Shown here: positions 12,508 through 55,419 of the stretch, piece by piece
Numbering within the stretch: the stretch's first letter is position 1
Layout of the letters: every line of letters begins with the position of its first letter
Virus record (IMG/VR): IMGVR_UViG_3300045988_132927
Coordinates: 13,484 to 77,483 of that record
Length of the DNA: 64,000 nucleotides
Source: a virus
Direction: 5' to 3' (one strand)
The notes under the pieces: model-generated
The model's input: only the letters and a program-made list of their open reading frames with translations
Database searches by the model: none
What the model was told of the DNA's origin: nothing
Program-made: the position numbers and the translations under genes

Positions 12508-15500
12508 TGGCTTCACAGTATAGTATTTTAAGGCAATATGCCCCGTATGTTAGTCCTTACAACATAGATCTTGTTAAGGACGTCATGATGTACAAACAGC
12601 AGAAGGTTGATGCTGCTCGTGAAAAGATCTATACCCAGGTAGATTATCTTATGGGTCAAGAGATAGATAAGCCTGAAGCCCGTGCTTATATGGAAGATAA
12701 GATGTCAGGTGTGATTGCTAACATCAATCAAAAATTCAAAGGCGTGGATCTTTCTTCTGATGGTGTTACGAGAGCCATACAAGGAGAGATCAGTTCAGTG
12801 TTGGATGATACGGTCATTAACGCGATTGCCGGCACAAAAGAAGGCAAGAGGGTTATGAAGGAAATAGAATCTATAAAACAGAATCATCCTGAACTTTATT
12901 CTCCTATTAATGAATGGCATGCTTTGGACCCTTATTACAAATGGAGGTCAGATGGTAAAGCAGGATCAAGGTTGGGAGGTCTTCATTATTCTCCTTATGT
13001 CGATTATACTAAGGAGATAAATAAGCTGGTCAGTGATTTTAGGAAAAACAACGAAGGCAAGAAGATTCAGACAACAGAATATGATGTTAAAGGTAATCCT
13101 ACTGGTGGAATCATAGAAGTCAACGTAGATGAGCTTACTGATTCCCAGATAAGGAATTTTGTGTCTGCTAACTTATCTGAAAACATGAGGAATCAGATGA
13201 GAATAGAAGCATCATACATGGCAGCTACCAATCCGGTGTTCAGTAATCCAGATTTGGTTAGTCAATACATTGGGTCTTATGTCGAAAGATACGATAGGCA
13301 CATAGGAGCATTGGAAGCAAAAAAGAAATCAGTAGGGGATAATAAGGATATTATTGATCGTATTGACAGTCAGATACAGGAAGCTAAAAATCAGAAAGCA
13401 GAAGCCAAGAGGGAGGCAGATATGATAATAGCTTCATCAGATCCGGTAGCGGCTGCTAATTTTGTTGTTACCAATAATCTTTTCGATAAGATGACTGATG
13501 CATGGAGATACGACAATACAAGTTTTGAAAGGAAGAAAGATGATCTTTATTTTGCAAGGTTGGCAGAGGATAGGGCTCAGCAAAAGTTTTTGACTGATAA
13601 TGCTAAGTCTATGGTTGAAATATCGTTGGCAAAAGAGCAACTTGCACAGGCTAAGATTGAAACCGAATACATGCGTACTTACGGTTCCAAGATGGGCACT
13701 GAAAGCTCATCCGGAGGCACAAGAGGAGCAGGCGGTGTAGGAGTGCCGATGGCTCCTATGGACGGGCCTACGGCTATCAATTCTGGAACGGGTAAGATAG
13801 GATCTGTTAATTTGGCTAATATCCCTTATGAACAACTCACATCTTCTTCCACAGAGCGTAGAGCAAATTTATTGAAATTATATAATTCATTATCTCCTAC
13901 AGACAGAAGTAATATCGTTGCAGCATCATACGAAGAAGAAAAAACTGACCCAGGATTGTATGCTAATATGACTCCTGAAGAACGGATATATTCTTATTTA
14001 AAAAATAATGGAGGTCAGAAAAACGGATATTTTGGACAAGGAAATAACAGATTGTCTGAAGCTTATGATGCTTTACTTCTTTCTGATTCTAAGGCAAATG
14101 GAGCTACAAAGGCTATAAATAACATAACTGATTATCAAATAGATAATATAGTTACTAAAAAAAATAAGGATATTATCAGTAAAGTTCGTAATGCTAAGTT
14201 TATGAAAGGAAATTCTTTTATAAATCTTACCGATACAGATGATAAGGCTGGAGCCTTCCTGCTCGCCACAGCCATAACAACTGGTGTATCTGATGCCGTA
14301 GGGTTCAGAGAATACATGATGGATCCTTCAAGAGGAATAGATATTCTTAGTGCTATATCTCCGTCATTAGGAGCTAAGGTGAGTGCAGGAAAGTTGGGGA
14401 AAAACATATCTGATGCTATTACAAGCGAGAATAATGGTTCTTCTACTGGTACATTGGCTCTTATTAATGGAATGAAGAAACTCAATGGCGATCCTGATTT
14501 TAATATATCAGATTATATGACCATAGATAAGGATGGTGATATAGATTTAAAAGATTATCAGGAAGGTGAACCATTAACTATTACCCAGCTAAGATATGCT
14601 GAGAAAAACAGTAGGGTGTCTGATATGATAGCAGGTCAGATGCAGGATGAGATAAAAATGTCTGTATCTCCTGATCAGATTTCTGATAAGTTATCTCAGT
14701 ATCATTACCTTGATTCTTACAAAAGATACAATTGGAATGCCGATTCACCGGAAAAGTCTTTGCAGAAGGCTCAGTTTAGAAGATTGTCTGGTTACATGGC
14801 AGGAAAGGTAAATAATCTGGATCCTACTGCTATTAATGCCATTAATATGGATGCCGAGATAGATAATGGCACCGTTAGAAGATTCTTGACTGCTCAAGTA
14901 GGTTCCGGTAAAAATTCTTATGTTACAGAAAGGGTTGAGATTACGAATGACGAGCTTCTTAAGGCGGGTATAGATCCTTCGGTCGAGGAGCGCAATTATC
15001 CGGTAGATGGCTACAAATCAAGTTTTGGAACCTGTGATTTTGTAGATACCGGAAAGAAGGAAGGTTATTCTTATGATAAGTATCTTATACGTAATGGCCT
15101 TCCTCGTTTGGCTTCTAAGGCTGATGTTAAGAATGATCTTTATGATATAGTAAAGGTTCATGGTTCTTACCTTAAGCCAGAAGAAATGAATGTTGTTAAA
15201 GCCCTTGTTGATAATTTTATTGACATGTCTGATAATATATCAGTTCAGTTGGAGGGAATGGACGATAGGGGTTCAAGAGAGGTAGCGGTCAATTTCTATG
15301 ACAAAAGGACTAAAAATTCTAAAAATCCTGCATTGTTGTTCTCGGATTTTGTTCCTTTGGATCCAGGTAATGATGAGTATGCGGATTACTGGAATAGCAT
15401 TCACCAGAAGTGTCCTCAGTACTTCTTTGTAAAATACGTGAAGGAGGCTGTTCAAGAACGTCTTGATCAGATGAGGGATCCGTATATGAGAGGAATAAAT

Positions 15501-50710: not shown

Positions 50711-51730
50711 TCATCGTTTTATCTTTTTAGACGGATCCCAATCCGAAGAGAAAGGGCATTCGTTTTTGTTATGTAATCCAAAGTCACAATAATAACACAG
50801 TGCTGACGGGCAGGGCAGCTTGTTTTGCGGAACAGGCTGGCTTAGGGTGGCGCGCCGCCTGCTATACCTGGCTCCTTCTGCCCCCTGGATGTACGCTTGA
50901 AATGTTTTTACACTATTATCTTCAAAATCATACATTTTAGATAAAGTGTCATTTAGCATCTCTATAGATTTTGTTTTACGTTCCTCATCCACTTTAACCT
51001 TTTGGTATTGTCTGGTCCTGGTAAAGAAATAGATGTTCATATCTGGCAGAACTCCACCATATTTTCTATAGATGTAAAACGAATATATAGGATGCTGTAA
51101 ATTCGTTTCCAACTTCTTAGAATCAAAAACCTTATTACCTGATTTCCAATCTATGACATAATGGTGAACTACGTTCTTGCTCTTTATAGCCAGATGAAGG
51201 TCTACCGATCCTACTATGTACACATGAGTATGAACGTCACCATTTATATCAACAGGCTTAGGAAGACGGTATGGCAGCACGAAATCTTCTTCGACTCCAA
51301 CTATGGCGCCGTGTCTGATAAGTTTCTCACAGGGATTAAGATCACTATCAGCTATCATAAACCTATTCCCGTCTTTTTTAAACAGATCCACAATCCAAGC
51401 AAGAAGCTCTCCAGATTGTTTCATGGCTATCATCATATTTTCCGGTGATTGCCAAGGTATGTCTTCTTGATAGGAATAATAACTTATTGCTTCTCCAAGG
51501 TCTTTACCGGAAGGCTGTCTTCCGTTCTTAAAGAAGTATTCCAGTGTCTTATGGATAACCGTACCATAAGACGTAGCTTCTTGTTTTTCCGTAGACCTTT
51601 TGCCCTCTACGTAAGTCTTATACCATTTCATTGGACAAGTAAGAAACGTATCTATCTGGGAATAAGATATGGCAAGACGTTTCACACCATTAAACTCCTT
51701 ATATAGCAAATGTGTTTCCGGGACCATCAT
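50711..51730 (-). CDS. Cas4-like / RecB-family PD-(D/E)xK nuclease with Fe-S cluster cysteines
   Basis: N-terminal Cys (LTCPMKW), VIDWKSG (DYKTG-like motif), C-terminal CPSALCYYC...ECPF cysteine cluster. Confidence 0.6.
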   Translation of the reverse strand: MMVPETHLLYKEFNGVKRLAISYSQIDTFLTCPMKWYKTYVEGKRSTEKQEATSYGTVIHKTLEYFFKNGRQPSGKDLGEAISYYSYQEDIPWQSPENMMIAMKQSGELLAWIVDLFKKDGNRFMIADSDLNPCEKLIRHGAIVGVEEDFVLPYRLPKPVDINGDVHTHVYIVGSVDLHLAIKSKNVVHHYVIDWKSGNKVFDSKKLETNLQHPIYSFYIYRKYGGVLPDMNIYFFTRTRQYQKVKVDEERKTKSIEMLNDTLSKMYDFEDNSVKTFQAYIQGAEGARYSRRRATLSQPVPQNKLPCPSALCYYCDFGLHNKNECPFSSDWDPSKKIKR

Positions 51731-52086
51731 AAGTCATTGTCTTTAAATCCTTCCGGGTAATATACGACATACTTCTTACCGTCTTCTGGTGTCATGGCAA
51801 ACTGCATGTAGTTATTACGATTACGATGCTTACCATCTAATCCTCGCTTCCAATACAGAATCCCGTCTATATCCACATAAGACCGTCCGCGTTCGGCTCT
51901 AACTACGTCCGTGTGTAGCAGATACCCGTCGGAAGACACAATCCACACTTTATCCCCTTTGTTTAAATAAGATATTCTTTTTCTTACAACAACCTTTTTC
52001 TTATTATCCAATACAAATTCCTCATCAGTCATACTCTTCATCCTCCTCTTCTTCTGTTTCAAAATCAATTCCATAACACTGATCAT
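51727..52086 (-). CDS. hypothetical protein
   Basis: 119-aa ORF. Confidence 0.4.
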   Translation of the reverse strand: MISVMELILKQKKRRMKSMTDEEFVLDNKKKVVVRKRISYLNKGDKVWIVSSDGYLLHTDVVRAERGRSYVDIDGILYWKRGLDGKHRNRNNYMQFAMTPEDGKKYVVYYPEGFKDNDL

Positions 52087-52249
52087 AATGCTTGGTCAGT
52101 TCTTCTGGTTCTAAATCTTGTCCAAAATCCATGTTAAAAATATCGTAATTAGTAAAGCACTTAAAATCACTGTTCCAGCAGGCAGGAAATCTATGAATGC
52201 TGCTTTTATTTCTTCAATTAGGCCCAAGTGTAACCTTGGGCCATTGTAT

Positions 52250-53950
52250 TTATTTTTTGTCATCTCCCTTTAACTTCTTTAAAGTATCTGCAATCGGAAG
52301 CTGATCAATGACTCCCAATGCCGGAGCGACGGTCTTAACAACATTGTTAAGGAAATTACCGGTACTGTTCTGACCGCCGTCAAATACTGTGATATTTCCG
52401 AGGTTAATGTGCTCAAATGCCTTAACCTGTTCTCCGGCAATTTCTTTCCACTGATTAACCATCTTGTACTGGATGGCGATCTGAGGATTGGATTCTGCTG
52501 CTTCCACCATGGCCTTAAATCCGTCGGCTTCTGCCATTAACGACTTTTTCTTACCTTCGGCTTCTGCCTCCAGCTTCATCTGAATAGCTTTTGCCTCCGC
52601 CTCAGCTTTTGCCAAATGTGCTGCTGCCTCAGCCTCAGCCCGGCGTTTGATCTTCTCGGCCTCGGCATCAGCTTGCAAGATGGCCTCTTCCTTCTGGGTT
52701 TCAGCCGGCACAATCTTTTCAGCCTTAAGCGCAGCCTGAACTTTCTTAGCCTTAGCTTCTTCCACTTCTTTGTCGGCAAGCTCTTTTGCTGTTTTTACAG
52801 CCGCTTCCGATTTAACTTTTTCTTCTCCGGCCTTCTTCTCTGATTGAGCTTTGATAATCTGTAGTTCTGATACTGACACAGCAACCTCCTTCTGGGCATT
52901 GTTGTATCCTATAGACGCATTTTTCTCAGCCTCAGCCTTCTTAATCTGAGCTTCAGAGTCTTGTATTGCTATAGCTGCTTCCTTGTCAGCTTCAGCCTTA
53001 TTCTTTCCGACTTCTTCCATCCTTTCAGCCTCGGCTTTATTTACTTCAAGTTCTGCCTTAGATCTTACAATCGCCGATTCCTTGTCGGTTAAAGTTTTTG
53101 CGATAACCGCAGCCCTGTCTCTATCTGCTTGAGCTACGCCGATCTGTTTCTCTTTATCGGTTAAAGCCAAGGCTATTTCTTTTTCTTTCTTCGTTTCAGC
53201 TACTATCGTTTCCTTTTCTTTTTCAGTACAAGCAATTTGAATCTCTTGTTCTTTTTTGGTATTAGCCACAGCCGTTTCTTTCTCCTTCTGCTGTACAGCA
53301 ATCTTAATAGCACCCAGCTTCTCCTGCTCTTCGATATTAGCTTGTGCTTCGTTCAGAGCCCTACTTTCAGCCTCCTTACCAAGGTTCATAATATAACCGG
53401 CTTCGTCTCTAATGTCACTGATGTTGATGTTCAGGAGGTAAAGACCTAACTTGTTAAGCTCGTTATCAATGTTCTTTCTCGCCTTATCCAAAAACTCATC
53501 CCTGTCAGAATTAAGTTTTTCGATTGTCATTTCAGCAATAATCAAACGCATCTGACCGTAAACGATGTCCGTAATAAGATTTTCAGTAGATTCGGTATCC
53601 ATCCCCAAAAGTCTTTCTGCCGCATTTTGCATGATTTCGGGATTTGTACTGATAGCTACTGTAATAGTCGTAGGTACATCTACTCTAATATTCTGAGATG
53701 ATAAAGCACCGGTAAGCTTGCAATCTATTTGCATAGGCTCCATTGACAAAACATCATAGCTTTGAATAATAGGTAAGACAAATGCCGCTCCACCATGATA
53801 TAATTTCGCCGACTTCTTTTCCCCACCTGTCTTACCATAAACGACCAAGACCTGATTAGGCTTACATCTACGATACCTTGATAAGACTCCGATGATTGTC
53901 AAAATAATCACTACAGCTAAGATAGCTGACACGTACATGATTGTTGTCAT
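52250..53950 (-). CDS. flotillin-like SPFH/band-7 domain protein with long Ala/Glu/Lys-rich coiled coil
   Basis: N-terminal TM helix then the SPFH core beginning LVVYGKTGG…; EA/KA repeat region; 566 aa. Confidence 0.7.
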   Translation of the reverse strand: MTTIMYVSAILAVVIILTIIGVLSRYRRCKPNQVLVVYGKTGGEKKSAKLYHGGAAFVLPIIQSYDVLSMEPMQIDCKLTGALSSQNIRVDVPTTITVAISTNPEIMQNAAERLLGMDTESTENLITDIVYGQMRLIIAEMTIEKLNSDRDEFLDKARKNIDNELNKLGLYLLNINISDIRDEAGYIMNLGKEAESRALNEAQANIEEQEKLGAIKIAVQQKEKETAVANTKKEQEIQIACTEKEKETIVAETKKEKEIALALTDKEKQIGVAQADRDRAAVIAKTLTDKESAIVRSKAELEVNKAEAERMEEVGKNKAEADKEAAIAIQDSEAQIKKAEAEKNASIGYNNAQKEVAVSVSELQIIKAQSEKKAGEEKVKSEAAVKTAKELADKEVEEAKAKKVQAALKAEKIVPAETQKEEAILQADAEAEKIKRRAEAEAAAHLAKAEAEAKAIQMKLEAEAEGKKKSLMAEADGFKAMVEAAESNPQIAIQYKMVNQWKEIAGEQVKAFEHINLGNITVFDGGQNSTGNFLNNVVKTVAPALGVIDQLPIADTLKKLKGDDKK

Positions 53951-53982
53951 AACTTTTAAAATTTAATTGTTGATAAAAAAAA

Positions 53983-54477
53983 TTAGATACTTAATTCTCC
54001 TTCTTCATATTTTATATTCGCCTTGTCGCCGTTTTTGTAGGTTTTTCCAGACAAGCATCTTACTCTCATTTGCTCTTGTCTTCCATTTTTCGAAATATTT
54101 ACCATATAATGATTCTTCCCTGATCTAAATACTATCTCCACTTCTCTTCCGTTTAAATCTTCCGGACATTCGTACACCATTTCTTGCTTTAACTTAAGAA
54201 GTAACTTATATACGTAAAACAAAACGATAAAGAAAAACGACCCTATCACAACCCCTACTAAATGGGAACCCGAAAAGTAAGTAGTCCAGCTATATCCAAG
54301 AATGAAATGTGTTATGCCCTTGAATGATATGATGTCCGACAAAGACATGCTTAAATCAGAAGCACTGTCAATGTCAATATCCGTATCCAGATCAGATCCT
54401 AATATCGACAACAAAAACTGTATAACAAAAGCAAATGACGCTATTAAAGCCATGCATAAAATTATATCACTTCCCAT
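53983..54477 (-). CDS. NfeD-like membrane protein (flotillin/stomatin operon partner)
   Basis: N-terminal TM helices and C-terminal beta/OB-like soluble domain, positioned immediately 5' of flotillin gene. Confidence 0.5.
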   Translation of the reverse strand: MGSDIILCMALIASFAFVIQFLLSILGSDLDTDIDIDSASDLSMSLSDIISFKGITHFILGYSWTTYFSGSHLVGVVIGSFFFIVLFYVYKLLLKLKQEMVYECPEDLNGREVEIVFRSGKNHYMVNISKNGRQEQMRVRCLSGKTYKNGDKANIKYEEGELSI

Positions 54478-54718
54478 ATCCTTCTGTTATTGTTTTGTAA
54501 ACAAGATCAGTCATATCTTTGATGGTCTCCATATCATAATCAATAATAACAATATTGAATTTTTGTTCCACCATCATTTCAAGTTCAATTTGATCAAGAG
54601 AATCTAATCCAAGTTCTTTAAACGTCACATCTTCTTCATGAACTATATCCATTTCTGAATTAAGAAACTGAGTAATAATTATATCCTCTATAATCTTTCT
54701 GATTTCTACTTTTTCCAT
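54467..54718 (-). CDS. acyl carrier protein
   Basis: LGLDSLDQIEL phosphopantetheine-attachment motif (DSL), 83 aa, acidic. Confidence 0.65.
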   Translation of the reverse strand: MEKVEIRKIIEDIIITQFLNSEMDIVHEEDVTFKELGLDSLDQIELEMMVEQKFNIVIIDYDMETIKDMTDLVYKTITEGYGK

Positions 54719-55419
54719 TGCTTTCTAATTTTGTTAAATAAATACGTTTTTATGTTTTTCAATCTCTCTTTGTCTGTTTCAGAACTTCCGGTAAACAAAT
54801 AATCCGGATTGCCTTTAGCCGGCGGCGTAGGCAATTTAGATACGGCAAACAACCAATCCATTTCCTTATTCTTCTTAGACTCCAAATAAGGCTCGGTAGC
54901 GATCTTGAATTTTTCAGCTATTAAGTCGAAGAGCTTTGAGTTTTTAAGGTTCATATGGACTGAAAAAGCCTGAGAAGGCGGTTTCCATATGAAGTTACAT
55001 AAGCTCATTGTATAATCTCCTGACTCTGCTATATAAGATTCCGTTACCTGAAGTATGACCTCTTTTTTAAATGAAGTATTACCCATAAACCAACACAACC
55101 TGGATTCCGCTTCTTTTCTGCTGACACCTATGTCTTTTGAATACGATTCGTACATTCCTATCATAATCTTCAACGTTTCCAGAACCTCGTCCGTCATTTC
55201 CGGTGTCTCTATATAATTCACAAAAGACGTTCCTTTGTTGGTTAATCTCATCACGCCTGATTTTAATTTCTCAACCAGGCCAAGCTCTATATACCTCCCA
55301 GCATCTTCTTCCGGCATGGCTTCGATCATAACCGTATCCTTCTGTCTTATGGCAAGAAGATTGGCAAGATCATTAGGAGTCATGTCTGATGCTGCAAGTT
55401 GTCTGAAATTGATGTACAT
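54706..55419 (-). CDS. hypothetical protein
   Basis: 237-aa ORF. Confidence 0.5.
   Translation of the reverse strand: MYINFRQLAASDMTPNDLANLLAIRQKDTVMIEAMPEEDAGRYIELGLVEKLKSGVMRLTNKGTSFVNYIETPEMTDEVLETLKIMIGMYESYSKDIGVSRKEAESRLCWFMGNTSFKKEVILQVTESYIAESGDYTMSLCNFIWKPPSQAFSVHMNLKNSKLFDLIAEKFKIATEPYLESKKNKEMDWLFAVSKLPTPPAKGNPDYLFTGSSETDKERLKNIKTYLFNKIRKQWKK

Follow-up and report, generated by a model that had tools for sequence, protein, structure and literature searches.

A flotillin and its NfeD-like partner, probably of Bacteroidales origin, in a variable slot of a gut phage next to a separable acyl carrier protein gene

The window analysed here is a stretch of 64,000 nucleotides (positions 13,484 to 77,483 of the IMG/VR virus record IMGVR_UViG_3300045988_132927). 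Within it lies a block of minus-strand genes encoding a flotillin, an NfeD-like membrane protein, an acyl carrier protein (ACP) and a protein of 237 aa (P237). An earlier note on this DNA had read the first three as a flotillin-like SPFH protein with a long EA/KA coiled coil, an NfeD-like membrane/OB-fold partner and an ACP with an intact DSL site, with the 237-aa protein next to the trio. The coordinates and lengths of the four open reading frames (ORFs) agreed with that description (Table 1), and the four are not chance frames, given their length and the strong domain scores. A further ORF, of 50 aa, shares 14 nt with the end of the flotillin gene, across its stop codon. Adjoining genes of the block either share 11-14 nt or leave gaps of at most 32 nt. 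The block is part of an extended minus-strand series of replication genes, with those for primase, DnaB, PD-(D/E)XK nuclease and helicase. On the minus strand within the block, no terminator-like site was found, and promoter-like matches stayed at chance level in a scan that did not cover Bacteroides-type promoters.

Table 1. Features of the gene block. Positions are those of the window unless a contig (L number) is named.
Feature	Position	Strand	Basis or remark
237-aa protein (P237)	54706-55419	-	ORF; conserved, part of the replication module
ACP-like protein, 83 aa	54467-54718	-	ORF; Pfam, PHROG and PDB matches
NfeD-like protein, 164 aa	53983-54477	-	ORF; fold, architecture, synteny
Flotillin, 566 aa	52250-53950	-	ORF; Pfam and PDB matches
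50-aa single-pass membrane ORF	52111-52263	-	ORF list; absent from the earlier note
119-aa backbone gene (P119)	51727-52086	-	Downstream edge of the variable cargo slot
PD-(D/E)XK nuclease	50711-51730		After P119; PDDEXK_1, 1.3e-20
Segment lost in the commonest natural deletion	52151-53979	not applicable	Approximate ends; blastn of the block against contigs
Asp-bearing ACP-like orthologues	L086 6675-6938; L254 4563-4826; L255 8675-8944; L256 8675-8938; L257 8675-8944		

The window is 98.6% identical to GenBank OR575929.1, the 151-kb record of the human gut phage csAssE-Sib, whose annotation already names a 'flotillin family protein', a 'transmembrane protein' and an 'acyl carrier protein'. The record also holds ring, muzzle and BACON-domain proteins, a diversity-generating retroelement and TnpB genes. 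Judged from the ring, muzzle and BACON annotation, csAssE-Sib appears to be a large crAss-like phage of Bacteroidales. We call it abundant because a near-identical flotillin is encoded by 165 IMG/VR stretches and a near-identical 237-aa protein by 194. Scans of IMG/VR with these two proteins yielded hardly any phage species other than this one; the distant relatives were taken from ENA contigs. A literature search on csAssE-Sib, or on crAss-like phages and flotillin, retrieved no paper. Two tRNA genes (window 2916-2988 and 3061-3134) were the sole Rfam matches at gathering level in the window, and their positions agree with the tRNA-Tyr and tRNA-Lys that the record annotates.

The flotillin assignment was borne out by two Pfam domains and by the translation. 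The protein matched PF01145 (SPFH/Band_7) with 91.7 bits against a cut-off of 23.6 (E 7.6e-26; residues 30-211, window 53318-53863) and PF15975 (Flot C-terminal) with 38 bits against a cut-off of 27 (E 2.1e-9; residues 450-559, window 52274-52603). Read from the translation, an N-terminal hydrophobic anchor spans residues ~4-24 and a long EA/KA-rich predicted coiled coil residues ~212-449. The closest solved structures in the PDB were human flotillin-2 and flotillin-1 (E 7e-23). The NCBIfam FloT model NF058507 gave 5e-42 and 144.5 bits, and since this score is far under the equivalog cut-off of 700, the phage protein is, as judged by model score, a homologue of Bacillus subtilis FloT and not an equivalog. 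Compared with Bacteroidales flotillins, it carries 22 and 11 additional residues in the coiled coil. The phage alleles range from about 467 to 597 aa through in-frame coiled-coil indels of 33-99 residues, in multiples of about 11 residues. DNA tandem repeats were considered as the source of this length variation, and none was found in window 52604-53317. The wall of SPFH cages is built by the coiled coil; given the length variation, the cage formed by the phage flotillin may be variable in size.

The 164-aa protein had no family match in Pfam, NCBIfam, PHROG or PADLOC. An exhaustive HMMER search gathered its family in 420 representative clusters, and PF01957 matched two of the 79 members of the family (best E 6e-5). 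A profile of five sequences found no match in the PDB. With the 79-member profile, the best match was YuaF and was weak (E 0.026; hhalign probability 56%). The AlphaFold model showed three membrane helices followed by a C-terminal beta domain (pLDDT 82-87), and the hydrophobic helices cover residues 2-27, 52-69 and 72-101. The OB-like beta domain (residues ~110-164) forms a five-stranded barrel of the NfeD type, and its best structural matches were the NfeD C-terminal OB domains 3wwv, 3cp0 and 2exd. Furthermore, the gene lies directly 5' of the flotillin gene in this phage, in its relatives and in 78 of the 80 host loci retrieved (see below). From the modelled fold, the membrane architecture, the operon position and the weak YuaF similarity, we regard the protein as a probable NfeD-like protein of the YuaF-type short form, with three predicted membrane helices, an OB-like domain and no protease domain. 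The NfeD-like reading of the earlier note was thus upheld by fold, architecture and synteny and not by the PF01957 sequence test. The pairing of its gene with that for flotillin is real. The best-conserved part of the family is a DxDxDxD acidic loop followed by an SFKGxxHF motif (residues 30-58), though it lies outside the OB domain; it is nearly invariant from the phage to Bacteroidales, and equally so in the small number of Clostridium and Gastranaerophilales homologues.

We searched for relatives of the 164-aa protein with a 15-member alignment in one genome per prokaryotic species. The 80 loci retrieved were nearly all from Bacteroidales (Phocaeicola, Bacteroides, Parabacteroides, Prevotella, Paludibacteraceae and Dysgonomonadaceae). 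A flotillin gene followed directly 3' of the NfeD-like gene, within about 20-40 bp, in 78 of them; the contigs of the other two end too soon. None of the 80 loci had a homologue of the ACP, P237 or the 50-aa ORF within 5 kb of the operon. Over its full length, the phage flotillin shares 67-71% identity with its counterparts in Bacteroides, Phocaeicola, Parabacteroides and Prevotella. Identity falls to 50-55% for Paludibacteraceae and Dysgonomonadaceae, and to about 42% for the small number of flotillins from outside Bacteroidales. The host flotillins are 83-99% identical among themselves, and the phage protein sits on a long branch, about 30% diverged from the hosts compared with 1-17% among hosts. 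The NfeD-like protein is 39-44% identical to its counterparts in Bacteroides, Phocaeicola and Parabacteroides and 31-34% to those in Prevotellaceae; between hosts, it evolves faster than flotillin. By homology and gene order, the NfeD-like and flotillin genes are a captured chromosomal operon, with Bacteroidales as the probable source. The divergence of about 30% from host flotillins indicates that the pair has long been resident in phages.

The 50-aa ORF has a 52-aa counterpart in two related phages (L082 and L168), and its length varies across the population. There was no counterpart downstream of the host flotillins examined, and by this comparison the ORF is phage-specific.

The cassette occupies a variable position in an otherwise constant gene order. 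Homologues of P237 extend down to 36% identity and always stand in the same backbone, which runs DnaB, a 200-aa protein, variable small genes, P237, the ACP gene where present, cargo, P119, further cargo in some phages, the PD-(D/E)XK nuclease and a helicase. P119 homologues flank the slot in L082, L168, L086, L254-L257, L169 and L170. In csAssE-Sib, L082 and L168, the ACP gene is followed by the NfeD-like, flotillin and small membrane ORF genes. In L086, L087, L254, L255 and L257, the slot holds the ACP gene and a DNA methyltransferase gene, with radical SAM genes after P119; in L256, the ACP gene and a gene for a 635-aa protein. The slot between P237 and P119 is empty in L169 and contains an unrelated 105-aa ORF in L170; thus, both the ACP and flotillin genes are absent from some related phages. 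Conservation of the trio among relatives, to which the earlier note had looked, held in the same order in L082 and L168; other phages have the ACP without flotillin, or neither. As far as these gene orders go, the ACP travels with P237 and flotillin occurs in hosts that lack the ACP next to it. Since the ACP occurs without flotillin and host flotillin without the ACP, the two are separable.

In the sister phages (L086 6941-9946 and the equivalents in L254-L257), the slot holds a DNA methyltransferase gene and two radical SAM genes lie between P119 and the nuclease gene. This content suggests that the slot region is a hotspot for accessory genes, possibly for DNA modification or anti-restriction. 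Several candidates were set aside. The 101-, 105- and 65-aa ORFs after P237 in L169, L170 and L088 had no HMM similarity that would make them divergent ACPs, and the ORF after P237 in L169, like the next ORF of L170 (176 aa), is a P119 homologue. L084 and L085 carry the NfeD-like/flotillin pair without an ACP; these are short contigs, probably bacterial, and were not used as phage evidence. IS605-type OrfB/TnpB genes were seen at differing sites within the replication modules of relatives (L087 1592-2812; L169 8044-9159; L082 13497-14288; L170 1-687), and the helicase gene of some related phages contains intein or homing-endonuclease domains.

Sequence searches supported the 83-aa protein as an ACP, and the DSL serine is present. 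It matched Pfam PP-binding (PF00550) with 27.7 bits against a cut-off of 20.8, PHROG 5934 acyl carrier protein (9.5e-11) and type II ACPs in the PDB (E 6e-7); every NCBIfam ACP model scored under its own cut-off. Its motif LGLD-S40-LD aligns to the DSL motif of the solved type II ACP 3gzl, with the serine at residue 40 (window 54599-54601). Ser40 was invariant in 46 distinct protein variants from IMG/VR, and L082 and L168 also have serine. In the positional orthologues of the flotillin-less phages L086 and L254-L257, this serine is replaced by aspartate (GFDDLD). Because aspartate replaces the attachment serine, the ACP-like protein of these sister clades may have a role independent of the phosphopantetheine prosthetic group. 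The start of the ACP gene overlaps the stop codon of P237, and the protein retains 40% aa identity between csAssE-Sib and L082. It is a small acidic protein that evolves fast, and its gene is tied to the phage backbone and lies outside the host flotillin operon. We also looked for enzymes that could serve an ACP. No phosphopantetheinyl transferase (PPTase), acyltransferase, ketosynthase, acyl-ACP synthetase or fatty-acid-synthase component is annotated in the 145 kb viewed of the 151-kb genome. When 48 early-region proteins of at least 100 aa that lack an assigned function were scanned against Pfam, none of the matches listed, which extend to about E 0.0045, was a PPTase or acyl enzyme. An acyltransferase or PPTase partner, which the earlier note had proposed to seek, was therefore detected neither in the annotation viewed nor among those matches. 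The host AcpS could modify the phage ACP.

P237 matched nothing in Pfam, NCBIfam, PHROG or PADLOC. Its N-terminal domain is a MarR-like winged helix, and no known fold matched its C-terminal two thirds. We propose that P237 is a DNA-binding replication or regulatory protein of the phage backbone and not a part of the membrane system. A FabT-like pairing of the MarR-like P237 with the ACP was considered and dropped, as FabT was one of many equivalent MarR matches and gave no specific support. At the other edge of the slot, an insertion of ~355 bp without an ORF was present in about 20% of related contigs (for example L004 7877-8115, plus strand) and matched the Rfam HEARO RNA RF02033 (112.9 bits, E 1.9e-24), the IscB-associated omega RNA. 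The insertion point corresponds to window 52072/52073, in the first codons of P119 and just 5' of an internal ATG. No HEARO copy is present in the window; TnpB genes are annotated in the record of the phage, and IscB is not.

Selection on the block was determined as dN/dS between the window and distinct full-length IMG/VR alleles. The ratio was 0.023 for P237 (93 alleles), 0.033 for flotillin (72 alleles), 0.053 for the NfeD-like protein (73 alleles) and 0.43 for the ACP (53 alleles). Between csAssE-Sib and L082, synonymous sites are saturated; amino acid identity was highest for flotillin (82%), followed by the nuclease (78%), DnaB (74%) and the ACP (40%). Loss was surveyed by blastn of the block against 80 contigs picked through the P237 gene, 78 of which span the block. 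Flotillin was intact in 59 of the 78 and all or mostly missing in 19 (24%), with at least five different junction types. The NfeD-like gene was intact in 16 of the 19 flotillin-deleted contigs, and none of the 78 had lost the ACP or P237. The commonest deletion, with a short ATTTTT microhomology at its junction, removes the whole flotillin gene and the 5' part of the 50-aa ORF and leaves the NfeD-like gene intact. Fusion proteins in metagenomes that join an NfeD N-terminus to a flotillin C-terminus are further deletion products. By these measures, the flotillin cassette is under strong purifying selection where present, yet dispensable. With its closest homologues in Bacteroidales, a variable locus and natural loss in 24%, it qualifies as a host-derived auxiliary (moron-type) cassette.

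Taken together, we consider it fairly probable that the block consists of two unrelated neighbouring modules in a replication-gene operon, with the host-derived cassette supplying a conditionally useful membrane scaffold. Starting from the gene content, homology, host origin, synteny, selection and presence/absence polymorphism observed above, we infer its expression timing, membrane assembly and physiological benefit as follows. Module 1 would be the NfeD-like gene, the flotillin gene and the 50-aa ORF, a host operon copy captured between the ACP gene and P119 and presumably co-transcribed with the replication genes. The N-terminal anchor would insert the phage flotillin into the inner membrane of the host, and the lengthened coiled coil would let it oligomerise to an SPFH cage or microdomain, to which the NfeD-like protein could dock through its OB domain. 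The phage would thereby provide its own membrane-organising, stress-buffering scaffold during infection, like other host-derived auxiliary genes. The benefit would be conditional on circumstances, which would lead to strong conservation where the cassette is present together with repeated deletion. Module 2 would be the winged-helix protein P237 and then the ACP-like protein, whose role would need no flotillin. Both floA and floT of B. subtilis are members of the sigma-W regulon for membrane stress, and phage infection is one of the stresses to which this regulon responds (PMC8581546). By analogy with this induction, we propose a membrane-buffering role for the phage scaffold.

Several observations weigh against this reading. 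The 164-aa protein and its close relatives have no match to PF01957. The divergence of the phage flotillin and its 33 extra coiled-coil residues may mean that it functions differently from the host protein and is not a simple supplement to it. The labels 'early' and 'co-transcribed' are drawn solely from gene order, overlaps and the lack of terminator-like sites. Finally, the serine form of the ACP occurs with flotillin and the aspartate form without it; this pattern, which comprises two clades only, leaves a small opening for a functional link.

The earlier note had proposed that the ACP, the NfeD-like protein and flotillin form a functional trio for lipid or acyl chemistry at a membrane microdomain. 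In its favour, the genes lie side by side with translational overlap, here and in two relatives, and all 46 alleles from the flotillin-bearing species keep the DSL serine, as opposed to the aspartate of the flotillin-less clade. The trio is nevertheless not supported, because the ACP is absent beside the operon in the 80 host genomes, methyltransferase genes fill the slot after the ACP gene in relatives, aspartate replaces the serine, deletions of flotillin spare the ACP, and neither the annotation viewed nor the matches listed for the 48 proteins included a PPTase, acyltransferase, ketosynthase or acyl-ACP synthetase. The weak constraint on the ACP (dN/dS 0.43 compared with 0.03 for flotillin) points the same way, and we regard a single acyl-chemistry unit as very improbable. 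It is scarcely credible that the cassette is a non-functional passenger, that is, recent and decaying host DNA. Frequent deletion in the population would fit a passenger; this view is largely refuted by the dN/dS of 0.03-0.05 over 72-73 alleles, the 82% identity of flotillin between lineages with saturated synonymous sites, the intact reading frames in 59 of 78 contigs and the long residence in phages that the divergence of about 30% from hosts shows.

Counter-defence or exclusion as the function of the flotillin cassette is a serious rival, if a rather unlikely one: a phage-specific SPFH cage could stabilise or repair the inner membrane when abortive-infection effectors disrupt it, or block the DNA entry of competing phages, and such cargo would be of advantage only where the hosts or the community present this threat. 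A DNA methyltransferase gene is a typical anti-restriction gene, and such a gene is the alternative cargo of this hypervariable slot. Strong purifying selection with recurrent independent loss is the usual mark of host-strain-dependent accessory genes, and the phage flotillin has diverged strongly from the host protein, with a lengthened and length-polymorphic coiled coil. This support is circumstantial, however; the cassette has no match to the PADLOC defence-associated models, and the literature searched gave no SPFH-type anti-defence or exclusion protein. A weaker rival, which we judge improbable, is that the phage flotillin and NfeD-like protein act like HflK/C: by binding the host FtsH, or a different membrane protease, and modulating it, they would make phage proteins more stable or shift the balance between persistence and lysis. 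Long NfeD proteins are protease-linked partners of stomatins, and 3wwv is the partner of the Pyrococcus horikoshii stomatin. With its Flot C-terminal domain, however, the phage protein falls in the flotillin subfamily and not in that of HflK/C, and its NfeD-like partner is the short form that lacks the protease domain. HflK/C regulate FtsH and the stability of lambda cII, and an action of this kind has been argued for the SPFH genes of Pseudomonas phages (PMC8540360). We also consider it unlikely that the captured operon has turned into a phage-specific cage, with a length-tunable coiled coil and the 50-aa protein as an added subunit, that serves counter-defence or membrane repair against membrane-targeting abortive infection or, less likely still, a lipid-remodelling replication platform with the holo-ACP. 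If true in either role, such a cage would give a prokaryotic SPFH scaffold encoded by a virus its first demonstrated function.

Many prokaryotes have SPFH-NfeD operons, and their physiological role is poorly defined. The flotillin-plus and flotillin-minus variants of one gut phage offer a natural experiment on the use of a bacterial flotillin scaffold under infection or membrane stress. A guilt-by-association reading is also corrected here, as the neighbouring ACP falls outside the flotillin system, and the change from serine to aspartate seen in sister phages suggests that the prosthetic group is dispensable for at least some phage ACP-like proteins.

Solo ACPs are found in other large phages (PHROG 5934; Yersinia fHe-Yen9-04, Pectobacterium CBB and Flavobacterium jumbophages). 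They are type II-like and come without a fatty-acid synthase, as here, and have no established function (PMC13573597). The ACP of csAssE-Sib differs in being tied to the winged-helix P237 and in that sister clades have aspartate in place of its serine. SPFH or flotillin genes carried by phages occur in the Pseudomonas phages KPP10 and PAK_P3, the Xanthomonas phage X1 and the Vibrio phage KIT04 (PMC8540360; PMC13384950). These are unrelated to the csAssE-Sib flotillin or only about 29% identical to it, and no NfeD partner is annotated beside the KIT04 flotillin. The stomatin-NfeD operons (P. horikoshii PH1511/PH1510; Escherichia coli qmcA-ybbJ) also combine an SPFH gene with an NfeD gene. Their SPFH protein is of the stomatin type, whereas that of the phage is of the flotillin type, and PH1510 is a long NfeD with the protease domain that is absent in the phage. 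In the homologous yuaF-floT (yuaG) operon of B. subtilis, as in the phage pair, a short NfeD gene stands upstream of a flotillin gene. In comparison, the present pair is phage-encoded, its NfeD-like protein is too diverged for PF01957, its flotillin scores 144 bits against 700 for FloT, the cassette has an additional 50-aa membrane ORF, and its regulation would come from the phage operon context and not from sigma-W. The operon of Bacteroides, Phocaeicola, Parabacteroides and Prevotella contains direct homologues of the phage pair in identical order and spacing; by contrast, the phage cassette is optional, lies on a long branch and has a longer, length-polymorphic coiled coil. Given that flotillin and ACP were already annotated in OR575929, and that SPFH genes had been noticed, though not analysed, in other phages, what is new here is the complete captured operon, the NfeD partner recognised by structure, the position in a cargo slot, and the combination of selection and dispensability in the phage population.

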